64,000 nucleotides of DNA from Octopus vulgaris (Eukaryota), in NCBI GenBank assembly GCA_951406725.2, contig OX597839.1:40796001-40860000 (forward strand), in the 5' to 3' direction. The notes beneath the pieces were generated by a model, which saw only the letters and a list, made by a program, of their open reading frames with translations, did no database searches and was not told the origin of the DNA. Shown here piece after piece: positions 7,645-47,266 of this stretch. The position numbers and the translations under genes were made by a program. Position 1 is the stretch's first letter. Every line of letters begins with the position of its first letter.

Positions 7645-8250
7645 GCCGCTGGGAGAACCGTTAGTATTCCCGGCAAAATGTTTTACGTTCTCAGTTCAAA
7701 TTCTGCCGGGACCGACTTTGCCTTTTATCCTTTCGGGGTCAATAAACTAAGTACCAGTTGAACTCTGGGGTCGATGTAATCGACTGACCCTTCCACCGAC
7801 ATTTCTGACCTTGTGCCAAAATTTGAATCTGTTATCATTATTATCATTAAGGCGGTGAGCTGACAGGTAAAAATACTGGCATTTTGTCCGTCTTTACGTT
7901 CTGAGTTCAAACTCCGTCGGGACCGACTTTGTCTTTTATCATTTCGGGGTCAATAAAATAAGTACCAGTTGAACTCTGGGGTCGATGTAATCGACTGACC
8001 CCTTCCACCGACATTTCTGACCTTGTGCCAAAATTTGAATCTGTTATCATTATTATCATTAAGGCGGTGAGCTGACAGGTAAAAATACTGGCATTTTGTC
8101 CGTCTTTACGTTCTGAGTTCAAACTCCGTCGGGACCGACTTTGTCTTTTATCATTTCGGGGTCAATGAAATAAGTACCAGTTGAACTCTGGGTTCGATGT
8201 AATCGATTGACCCCCTTCCTCCGAAATTTATGGCCTTGTGCCAAAATTTT
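7645..8250 (+). mobile_element. Tandem triplication of SINE family A (period about 212 bp)
   Basis: TTTACGTTCT(C/G)AGTTCAAA recurs at about 7682, 7893 and 8105, with near-identical intervening sequence. Confidence 0.85.
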
Positions 8251-44114: not shown

Positions 44115-44160
<46 letters not shown>

Positions 44161-44387
44161 TAATTAATCAATATAGGGTGGCAAGGAAAATTTTGTAGAA
44201 TTTTTTTGCCACCAGCGGCCAGTGGGAAAAAATTAAATAGTCATAGACCATTTTTAAGTTCAACATTAACAATTAAGGAACGGCCATAATAGGCCATTCA
44301 CCCACTAGAAATAACAGCCAAAGCTTCTACCGCAAATAAAGATCAATTCCGTAAACAGGAGAAAATTAAAAAAACATTTACCCTGTA

Positions 44388-44494
44388 ATTTCTTGTACGG
44401 TATACCGTTTCATCTGCTGTTTAATGGTAAACTAACCTGATTAAATTAAATCAAGCCAATCTTCCATAAGCCCTCAGATTCTTCAGCAAGAAAT
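44388..44494 (-). ncRNA. Type I hammerhead ribozyme (copy 1, inverted arm)
   Basis: Reverse complement of 44809-44915. Confidence 0.85.
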
Positions 44495-44808
44495 AGCTCA
44501 AGTCGGAACAGATATTTACACGAGGCATACCCAATCCTGCCAAGGCAATATCTGACCTAAAATTTTCAAATCGTCGCACTCGCGCCAAATTTATCGGCAG
44601 CAAATAAATCGTCGATTCCATTACGGAATTAACCAAAAAATTCATAATTAATCAATTATGAATTTTTTGGTTAATTCCGTAATGGAATCGACGATTTATT
44701 TGCTGCCGATAAATTTGGCGCGAGTGCGACGATTTGAAAATTTTAGGTCAGATATTGCCTTGGCAGGATTGGGTATGCCTCGTGTAAATATCTGTTCCGA
44801 CTTGAGCT

Positions 44809-44915
44809 ATTTCTTGCTGAAGAATCTGAGGGCTTATGGAAGATTGGCTTGATTTAATTTAATCAGGTTAGTTTACCATTAAACAGCAGATGAAACGGTA
44901 TACCGTACAAGAAAT
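44809..44915 (+). ncRNA. Type I hammerhead ribozyme (copy 2), predicted cleavage after A44907
   Basis: Stem I ATTTCTTG/CAAGAAAT (8 bp). Core CTGAAGA 44817-44823. Stem II ATCTG...CAGAT with a long hairpin insert. GAAAC 44892-44896. Stem III AC-GG-tata-CC-GT. GUA cleavage triplet. Confidence 0.85.
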
Positions 44916-45291
44916 TACAGGGTAAATGTTTTTTTAATTTTCTCCTGTTTACGGAATTGATCTTTATTTGCGGTAGAAGCTTTGGCTGTTATTTCTAGTG
45001 GGTGAATGGCCTATTATGGCCGTTCCTTAATTGTTAATGTTGAACTTAAAAATGGTCTATGACTATTTAATTTTTTCCCACTGCCGCTGGTGGCAAAAAA
45101 ATTCTACAAAATTTTCCTTGCCACCCTATATTGATTAATTATGAATTTTTTGGTTAATTCCGTAATGGAATCGACGATTTATTTGCTGCCGATAAATTTG
45201 GCGCGAGTGCGACGATTTGAAAATTTTAGGTCAGATATTGCCTTGGCAGGATTGGGTATGCCTCGTGTAAATATCTGTTCCGACTTGAGCT

Positions 45292-45398
45292 ATTTCTTGC
45301 TGAAGAATCTGAGGGCTTATGGAAGATTGGCTTGATTTAATTTAATCAGGTTAGTTTACCATTAAACAGCAGATGAAACGGTATACCGTACAAGAAAT
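45292..45398 (+). ncRNA. Type I hammerhead ribozyme (copy 3), predicted cleavage after A45390
   Basis: Same sequence as 44809-44915, 483 bp downstream. Confidence 0.85.
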
Positions 45399-45516
45399 TA
45401 CAGGGTAAATGTTTTTTTAATTTTCTCCTGTTTACGGAATTGATCTTTATTTGCGGTAGAAGCTTTGGCTGTTATTTCTAGTGGGTGAATGGCCTATTAT
45501 GGCCGTTCCTTAATTG

Positions 45517-45551
<35 letters not shown>

Positions 45552-46034: not shown

Positions 46035-46449
46035 GACGACGAAGAAGAAGAAGAAGAAGAAGAAGAAGAAGAAGAAGAAGAAGAAGAAGAAGAAGAAGAA
46101 GAAGAAGACGAAGAAGAAGAAGAAGAAGAAGAAGAAGAAGAAGAAGAAGCAGAAGAAGAAGAAGACGAAGAAGAAGACGAAGAAGAAGAAGAAGAAGAAG
46201 AAGAAGAAGAAGAAGAAGAAGAAGAAGAAGAAGAAGAAGAAGCAGAAGAAGAAGAAGAAAAGAAGAAATGAAGAAGAAGAAAAGAAGAAGAAAAAAAGAG
46301 AAGAAGAAGAAGAAGAAGAAAAAGAAAAAGAAGAAGAAGAAGAAGAAGAAGAAGAAGAAGCAGAGGAAGAAGAAGAAGAAGAAGAAGAAGAAGAAGAAGA
46401 AGAAGAAGAAGAAGAAGAAGAAGAAGAAGAAGAAGAAGAAGAAGAAGAA
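46035..46449. repeat. (GAA)n of about 400 bp
   Basis: Read directly. Confidence 0.95.
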
Positions 46450-46800
46450 TTTCATGGCTACTGGATCAAAAGATTTGGTGAATGTCATGCACGAATCGTT
46501 GCGTAACTCGACGCCTTGTTAAATGCCGACCAAGGAACACCAGATTGGTTGACATTGGGTAGGACAGTGCTGTGCCAGAAAAACACCGAAAAAGGCAAAA
46601 CGGTAGACAAGTACAGATCGATATTCTGTTTGCCACTTCTATGGAAGTTATTGACTGGAATGCTCGCAGAGTCAATGTACGAACATCTGGAGAGAAAAAA
46701 AATGGAGTCCTGCCACATGAGCAGAAGGGTTGCAAGCGTAAGTGCAGAGATACCAAGGATCAACCCCTGAGAGATAAAACTGTACTCAGAGACTGCAAGA
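46448..46800 (+). pseudogene. Dong/R4-clade non-LTR reverse transcriptase fragment
   Basis: HGYWIKRF...TPDWLTLGRTVLCQK...DKYRSIFCLPLLWKLLTG...HLE / VLPHEQKGCKRKCRDTKDQ.LRDKTVLRDCK, covering the RT domain 0-2 region. Contains a stop and a frameshift. Confidence 0.75.
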
Positions 46801-46821
46801 CGATGATGGAAAGTAATTTAG

Positions 46822-46922
46822 AGGAAGGGATTAAGTCGATTACATCGACCCCAGTGCGTAACTGGTACTTATTTAATCGACCCCGAAAGGATGAAAGGCA
46901 AAGTCGACGTCGGCAGAATTTA
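46822..46922 (-). mobile_element. SINE family A fragment
   Basis: GGATTAAGTCGATTACATCGACCCCAGTGCGTAACTGGTAC...GGATGAAAGGCAAAGTCGAC. Confidence 0.8.
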
Positions 46923-46963
46923 AATATAATAATAATAATAACAACAACAACAACAACAACAAC

Positions 46964-47039
<76 letters not shown>

Positions 47040-47062
47040 TTAATAATAATAATAATAATAAC

Positions 47063-47266
47063 TCAGATACTAGGAAACCCCAAAATGGCAGAAATTCAAA
47101 AGATAGTGGTCATGGGAACTGCTCATATCCTACGCAAAATACTCTCTATGTAATCTCAAGGTTTAATACAAACTTCTTTTTTTTTTTATTTAGTTATTAG
47201 ACATTCACTAGTACAACACCAAAAAAAGAAAAAAACTTATGGCATACTAGGCATAACAACAACGTG
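47063..47266 (+). mobile_element. Dong/R4-clade 3' end inserted in (TAA)n
   Basis: GNPKMAEIQKIVVMGTAHILRKILSM* (LQKxxLLGTAxILR-type C-terminus) plus a short UTR, with (TAA)n on both sides, which is the known Dong target. Confidence 0.7.

Follow-up and report, generated by a model that had tools for sequence, protein, structure and literature searches.

The insertion at positions 44156-45521 of the window (the stretch of 64,000 nt of Octopus vulgaris contig OX597839.1 analysed here) is a real and young retrozyme insertion, and an ordinary member of its family. To explain its head-to-head structure, we favour as fairly probable that an enzyme of a Penelope-type element (PLE) wrote a young non-LTR retrozyme into a (TA)n tract by priming on both strands, at two sites of the repeat unit called A and B, from a template that was likely one RNA and probably a circular one. 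The retrozyme class, head-to-head inversions and one-sided tails are already published and the gross architecture is known; in the literature we did not find strict pairing of A with B, the long tail or evidence for a single template, and subscription papers and supplements may describe the pairing.

Architecture of the insertion

When the sequence was re-examined, all measured claims of an earlier note about the head-to-head structure of this locus held base for base. The arms at 44156-44649 and 44654-45146 (494 and 493 nt) are mutually complementary with a single indel at 44219/45084, and the complementarity is exact for 430 nt outward from the centre, AATC at 44650-44653, which reproduces the palindrome of about 1 kb, with 494-bp arms, described in that note. 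The left arm, said to be slightly longer than one unit and to have the same sequence at both ends, is one unit plus a 17-nt terminal repeat (44156-44172 equals 44640-44656). The right arm, put at 1.8 units, has a period of 483 with 385 of 385 positions matching, comes to 1.80 units, and extends beyond the palindrome by 375 nt, or 0.78 unit. As had also been claimed, the central spacer is itself unit sequence and overlaps the right arm by AAT (44654-44656), a 3-nt microhomology common to both arms at unit positions 479 and 1, and the outer 3' ends lie at different unit positions, the left one at B and the right one at A, each ending in AAT and passing into pure (AT)n (Table 1). The hammerhead in each unit and the end positions fixed across the family had been overlooked.

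Table 1. Features of the insertion, in window coordinates
Feature	Position	Strand	Remarks
Left (AT)n target remnant	44121-44157		37 nt, pure; last AT common to element
Left arm, 501 nt	44156-44656	-	sense on minus strand; from unit 479 round to 495; tailed outer 3' end, at site B
Type I hammerhead motif, left arm	44388-44494	-	mirror of 44809-44915; placed by symmetry
Head-to-head junction	44650-44656		AATC from left arm plus AAT microhomology of both arms
Right arm, 868 nt	44654-45521	+	1.8 times the 483-bp unit; tail-less outer 3' end, at site A (unit 385)
Type I hammerhead motif, right arm, first	44809-44915	+	fold, core, covariation
Stem I of first right-arm hammerhead	44809-44816 with 44908-44915	+	
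Core of first right-arm hammerhead	44817-44823 and 44892-44896	+	CUGAAGA (44817-44823); 68-nt stem II; GAAAC (44892-44896); stem III
Predicted cut of first right-arm hammerhead	after 44907	+	after GUA
Predicted cut-to-cut monomer RNA, 483 nt	44908-45390	+	inferred from the two hammerhead motifs
Internal A-to-B 'tail' segment, about 105 nt	45039-45146	+	predicted hairpins between two AU-rich unpaired sites
Second right-arm hammerhead motif	45292-45398	+	predicted cut after 45390; identical by period 483
Right (AT)n target remnant	45520-45547		28 nt; first AT common to element

The indel lies in a G run of three bases in the family yardstick (GGG), two in the left arm (GG) and one (G) in the right. 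Public sequencing runs show two more bases there than the right arm of the window, so the indel is probably a sequencing slip. Homopolymer slips of this kind in the arms could be taken as a sign that the palindrome is a fold-back chimera or an assembly artefact, as could the fact that no contig in any of four short-read runs bridged the junction at 44650-44656, a result that is uninformative for a private insertion in short-read contigs and because of which the locus rests on the assembly. Such an artefact is scarcely credible, since the flanks of the insertion are not mirror images, the arms are unequal in length and in end site, and the locus follows the rule of 69 other insertions with varied junctions. 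Loose contig ends at the junction in the short-read runs are ordinary unit continuations. Contig joints to 44909 in the public runs, being explicable by subfamily sequence, were set aside.

A hammerhead motif in every unit

The unit is 483-485 bp long and non-coding, and each carries a type I hammerhead motif; the right arm holds two, 483 nt apart, with the sense on the plus strand. A 121-nt stretch around the motif adopts a three-stem fold (z -4.6). In 25 variants selected from this retrozyme family and from a sister family, no change occurs in CUGA-GA, GAAAC or GU, N7 is A, U, C or G, and the cut triplet is GUA or GUC. Covariation is strong, with 14 of 34 pairs altered on both sides and 96.6% of hammerhead cells paired against 28-47% in slid controls; the shuffle test of this covariation is inflated by the relatedness of the sequences. 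The motif shows the CUGANGA and GAAA core, an NUH cut site, three stems and an open helix I, as type I hammerheads do. An Rfam search returned no hammerhead family (53 matches, all under the gathering scores and mostly driven by hairpins), likely because of the long stem II. Taken from cut to cut and folded as a circle, the monomer scores better than 60 of 60 shuffles.

The longest ATG frame of the unit has 64 aa and no Pfam match, and the RT plus GIY-YIG frame of an autonomous PLE is absent from it. What remains are the features of a non-LTR retrozyme, namely tandem hammerhead units that are non-coding, dispersed in many copies and free of LTRs. The unit size lies outside the reported retrozyme range of about 170-400 nt, which is a reported range and not a defining limit. 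The unit fits the working definition of a non-LTR retrozyme in the accessible text of a 2026 preprint (10.64898/2026.07.22.740005), its larger size excepted, and we have little doubt that the repeat, with its predicted self-cutting motif, is an animal non-LTR retrozyme.

All three runs that we guessed to be RNA cover the unit, in contigs in which strand, ends and circles are invisible. Two of them (X1 and X9) carry clusters of A>G or T>C changes at window 44754-44906, with far fewer in the DNA run. Head-to-head arrays, when read through, would give long double-stranded RNA, and the clusters likely reflect editing of such RNA, on a comparison of unmatched RNA and DNA. Rare fixed alleles, examined for strand-biased editing as a clue to the template strand, divide into 7 A>G and 8 T>C.

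Two fixed 3' ends across the genome

The assembly searched comprises 2.8 Gb in about 30 large contigs and holds roughly 1,300 ends of this retrozyme; a whole-unit search with 1,340 candidates, 40 of which were scored, gave 234 matches, and a search with the B-end pattern 670 forward matches. For comparison, 99 stretches were fetched in three sets: 40 by likeness to the whole unit, drawn from the 150 listed of the 234 matches, blind to the ends and including the window locus; 25 of the 46 exact A-end matches outside the first set; and 34 stretches from contig 1, the first in the list of matches to the B-end pattern there. These contain 103 clusters, 76 head-to-head, 27 with a single detectable orientation and none tail-to-tail, with arrays of up to 14 units per arm.

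The outer 3' ends fall at site A (unit 376-392, mode 385) or at site B (unit 484-495, mode 491), about 105 nt downstream of A, in 173 of 179 cases, and in 68 of 72 within the end-blind set. That (TA)n is the target, as the earlier note proposed for this locus, holds across the copies, in which 172 of 179 3' ends run into (AT)n, tracts in which a target-site duplication would go unseen. Its suggestion that priming took place at opportunistic internal AT microhomologies is not supported, since two fixed end sites are found instead and TATAT at 476-480, which matches (AT)n better than any other part of the unit, is used by 0 of 179 ends.

Fixed termini, as in a MITE, had been set against its model by the same note. 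The 3' termini are indeed fixed, but the two differ from each other, and the inner junction and the number of units vary, so that the element is not a MITE; terminal inverted repeats and uniform size are lacking in insertions with two different ends and arms of about 30 to 6,900 nt. More generally, the element could be read as a DNA repeat of satellite or MITE-like kind in which unequal exchange and conversion built the arrays and inversions once it had inserted; such a reading could appeal to the local tandem amplification proposed for retrozymes in the literature, and conversion would homogenise both units and arms. This reading is very improbable in the face of units that are identical across chromosomes, two different fixed ends with no terminal inverted repeat, the lack of any tail-to-tail cluster among the 103, junctions with templated insertions and microhomology, and a ragged 5' truncation tied to the RNA cut site.

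A sister family with a 494-bp unit, 64% identical to this one and with 2,259 candidates, has the same two ends, as seen without a tally. Its copies were noticed at L054:5690-6015 and in stretches L172-L201, where the hammerhead keeps its core and stem I is rewritten; copy L186 has lost the core through a local duplication, and most other sister copies retain it.

One arm ends at A and the other at B

Stretches L059 and L060 (contig 30, about 360 kb apart) contain the same insertion with its flank mirrored, as an inverted or assembly duplicate, and L060 was dropped, which reduced the head-to-head insertions from 76 to 75. In 70 of these 75 one arm ends at A and the other at B, in none do both end at A, in none do both end at B, and in five one end lies elsewhere. 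The A+B counts are similar in the three sets (27/30, 18/19 and 25/26), and all 27 loci of the end-blind set with two standard ends are A+B (P = 7e-9 against free pairing). This pattern therefore indicates priming at two fixed sites, the signature of a Penelope 'tail', and tandem copies combined with inverted ones, head to head and tailed at one end, make up the structure expected of PLE mobilisation. In stretches L048, L096, L105, L116 and L133, which were scored as single-orientation, a short second arm of the other type is visible by eye and was left uncounted.

Length tests were carried out on 68 simple loci, after two complex loci were removed from the 70. At 15 of them each arm holds sequence absent from the other, which argues against a fold-back; the remaining 53 are compatible with one arm having been copied from the other. 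A fold-back or self-priming of the cDNA, an idea found in the available part of PMC3846280, would have the cDNA copy itself, with the endonuclease acting at the other site to resolve the second end. It would account for variants common to both arms, and the junction in the window can be read as a 4-nt loop closed by a 3-bp stem. Near-mirror junctions (within 15 nt) are also enriched, at 14 of 68 against 2.9 under the null, which fits a shared template end as well as some fold-back. Yet the central 7 bases of the window locus, the loop included, belong to the shorter arm and are absent from the longer, 868-nt arm, and therefore neither arm can template the other in full; across loci the longer arm may be either A or B (29 versus 20). 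Together with the 15 loci, this makes fold-back distinctly unlikely, and the retrozyme data argue against the self-priming of PLEs with an endonuclease (EN+) as a general route, as it is put forward in that part of PMC3846280.

The junctions suggest instead two cDNAs joined at their 3' ends. Microhomology of at least 3 nt occurs in 5 of 19 insertion-free junctions against 6.5% by chance, and its mean length is 1.7 nt against 0.7, in agreement with the joining by microhomology that the earlier note had put forward. Short templated insertions are frequent at the junctions, some 'insertions' being sequence errors close to them. For the junction in the window, two cDNAs with paired 3' ends ATT and AAT are the simplest account. 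On the pairing of A with B and the loci in which self-copying is impossible, priming from both strands, as first proposed for this locus, is highly probable. At L099:998-1144, a 149-nt junction insert of repeated A-run motifs of the unit resembles repeated end-joining slippage.

A probable single template, read repeatedly

A template longer than the unit, as the earlier note required, is borne out by the arms that cross the ribozyme cut, 114 of 168, of which 55 do so twice or more and one 14 times. Between its alternatives of a circular and a multimeric RNA, the evidence leans towards one monomer that was read repeatedly. Differences between the two arms of a locus amount to 26 in 7,097 columns, whereas loci of the same class diverge from one another by 4.1%. 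At L047 one change is carried by all 5 units (in one arm) and at L055 another by all 8, four per arm, and neither recurs elsewhere in the assembly; at L051 a change is present in 4 of 4 units across both arms, and its sole outside match was rejected as a source copy, being an 88% subfamily. These locus-private changes in every unit, and in both arms at two loci, favour one RNA that was read repeatedly, as the template of both arms quite probably was. Of the 31 multi-unit loci, 29 have no variant confined to some units, apart from singletons, and at L062 and L142 variants are found in only some units, a pattern that a single circle leaves unaccounted for. Later gene conversion, or a source missing from the haplotype of the assembly, could also have produced the identity of the arms.

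The 5' stops bear on the form of this template. In the 36 nt after the predicted cut (unit 255-290) there are 42 stops where 14.1 were expected, a hotspot that overlaps a U run at unit 276-288, and in the stretch before it (unit 219-254) 12 where 12.7 were expected. Enrichment after and not before the cut supports a sense template whose 5' end is sometimes made by the ribozyme; neither 5' end of the window locus falls at the predicted cut. The hotspot fits an opening circle as well as linear, partly cut multimers.

The same two-site, two-strand PLE priming could have used no covalent circle and proceeded from a linear, partly cleaved multimer, from monomers joined by template jumps, or, as dual priming, from two RNAs of one source array. 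The enrichment of 5' stops past the cut even after the first crossing (18 versus 6.5 expected) would be in keeping with this, as would the 14 of 68 loci at which the stops of the two cDNAs are no more than 15 nt apart, as expected if they shared a linear 5' end, the mixture of four unit haplotypes at L062, and the accessible account of the PLE protein PAc, whose main substrate is uncut RNA (PMC11167929). It has to accommodate three locus-private changes that fill all covering units with no source copy in the assembly, and 29 of 31 arrays that are homogeneous apart from singletons, and with two independent RNAs the pairing of A with B is less simply enforced; we regard it as unlikely. That the single, repeatedly read template was a covalent circle is an even call. 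The array at L062:1040-9368 consists of 18 segments with four unit haplotypes at two sites and no other substitutions, which suggests mixed templates or conversion.

Probable Penelope-type machinery

PLEs are described, in the available portions of PMC3846280 and PMC8557442, as leaving inverted head-to-head copies, a tail often at one end only, and (TA)n targets. The PLE-type footprint recognised in the earlier note is present across copies in just this form, with inverted head-to-head copies, a one-sided tail and a (TA)n target. For PAc, what is accessible of PMC11167929 reports that the protein in vitro cuts and extends both strands, is predicted to be a dimer and begins synthesis at two neighbouring internal sites, one at either limit of the tail; the strands did not differ in where they started and uncut RNA was preferred in vitro, two points that tell against the favoured reading. 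Machinery of the Penelope type is very likely behind the insertion.

The genome is rich in young Neptune-type elements, recognised by a linker motif read from sequence, the clade name being taken from the literature. In these elements the 3' ends come in a short and a long form separated by about 35 nt, and each of two inverted copies (L156 and L158) bears both; the tail of the commonest Neptune family measures about 35 nt, where that of the retrozyme measures about 105. A young Neptune-type PLE lies in (TA)n at L150:2166-6530 and in stretches L152-L164, with a 765-aa RT plus GIY-YIG frame following a 303-aa frame.

A GIY-YIG search, which scored 150 of 6,136 candidates and led to 41 stretches, was used in looking for a partner element; compared with the unit, these 41 stretches gave chance-level matches, the best one internal to a PLE being 18 nt (E 0.028). 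A 57-nt match in L073 was rejected as a link to a PLE, being a retrozyme copy. A pattern search for a partner with a short-stem-II hammerhead gave one match, and tblastn of the Neptune protein against the retrozyme loci found nearby PLE pieces, none of them seen joined to the unit; among the elements covered by these searches no autonomous partner emerged. At L175:1-2186 a Neptune fragment, a piece of the retrozyme family and an array of the sister family are stacked in one (TA)n tract.

A model of insertion and its relation to known systems

By analogy with the retrozymes in the accessible part of PMC7229834, an array would be transcribed and would cleave itself to unit length, with a part of the product ligated to circles. 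A GIY-YIG/RT protein, likely a dimer, would bind the A-B segment and nick both strands of (TA)n; each target 3' OH could then start a cDNA through 1-3 nt of AT pairing, one at A and one at B, and both polymerases would head toward the 5' side of the RNA, over distances between part of a turn and 14 turns, and would halt with higher frequency shortly beyond the ribozyme cut, with the two cDNA 3' ends finally united by end-joining. At the window locus, the B cDNA would measure 501 nt and the A cDNA 868 nt, and the palindrome would be near-perfect because site B was where each of them stopped, ATT then pairing with AAT before fill-in.

A broader version, possible but tentative, would see PLE integration as an obligately asymmetric double priming, in which a dimer holds a single circular ribozyme RNA by a cassette of two sites, the strands start at A and B, and both polymerases roll round the same circle until self-cleavage or an occupied site. 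If true, a single step would account for tandem arrays in PLEs and retrozymes as well as for their tails and inverted pLTRs. Against the favoured reading stand the 27 of 103 clusters with one detectable orientation, and frog retrozyme dimers, of which only one in nine cleaved in vitro.

The origin of tandem and inverted PLE insertions and of one-sided tails is named as open in the accessible parts of PMC8557442 and PMC11167929, and the mobilisation of animal retrozymes by PLEs has so far been based on co-occurrence and pLTR similarity. The present family yields predictions that can be counted: one A and one B per event, a common template, and stops at the ribozyme cut.

As far as their available text goes, the animal non-LTR retrozymes of PMC7229834 and 10.64898/2026.07.22.740005 are alike in their dispersed, non-coding tandem units of low GC with type I hammerheads, and mobilisation by PLEs and circular templates are proposed there. 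They differ in unit length (170-400 nt reported, against 485 nt with a 68-nt stem II here) and in that those descriptions mention neither (TA)n targets nor fixed ends in pairs nor arms set head to head, all present here; circles and cleavage were demonstrated there and are predicted here. EN+ PLEs, as described in the portions available of PMC3846280 and PMC8557442, share partial tandems, an inverted and 5'-truncated head-to-head copy, palindromic junctions and an often one-sided tail, and Neptune, Naiad and Hydra show the same (TA)n bias. By comparison with what is accessible on these elements, the retrozyme has no ORF, its tail is about 105 rather than 30-40 nt, its arms reach 14 units on either side, and the one-tail rule held without exception at the 70 loci that have two standard ends. 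With PAc of Poseidon the insertions have in common AT-rich cuts in two strands, both of which are extended, two starts that bound the tail, and a predicted dimer; in the available part of PMC11167929 there is no pairing rule and no need of ribozyme cleavage, whereas here A pairs with B and the 5' stops follow the position of the cut. Twin or dual priming of L1, in the accessible account of PMC2837659, likewise involves two primed strands, an inverted head-to-head product and a microhomology join, but it uses the poly(A) end and a variable internal site and leaves non-overlapping pieces, in contrast to fixed sites and arms that overlap by many units.

Other repeats

The genome holds several ribozyme repeat families. 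A different tandem array at L054:254-1690, whose units repeat about every 479 bp and each bear a short-stem hammerhead motif, lies 2.7 kb from a copy of the retrozyme family, and further unrelated hammerhead-like motifs were noticed at L036:2523, L096:6785, L118:7093, L159:2033, L163:2899 and L100:6465. Elsewhere in the window, 2.7 tandem copies of a 212-bp unit, 95% alike, occupy 7682-8249, a repeat that may resemble a cephalopod SINE, and at 46430-47153 there is a LINE-like frame fragment, broken by a triplet run, whose end resembles a frame in L165.
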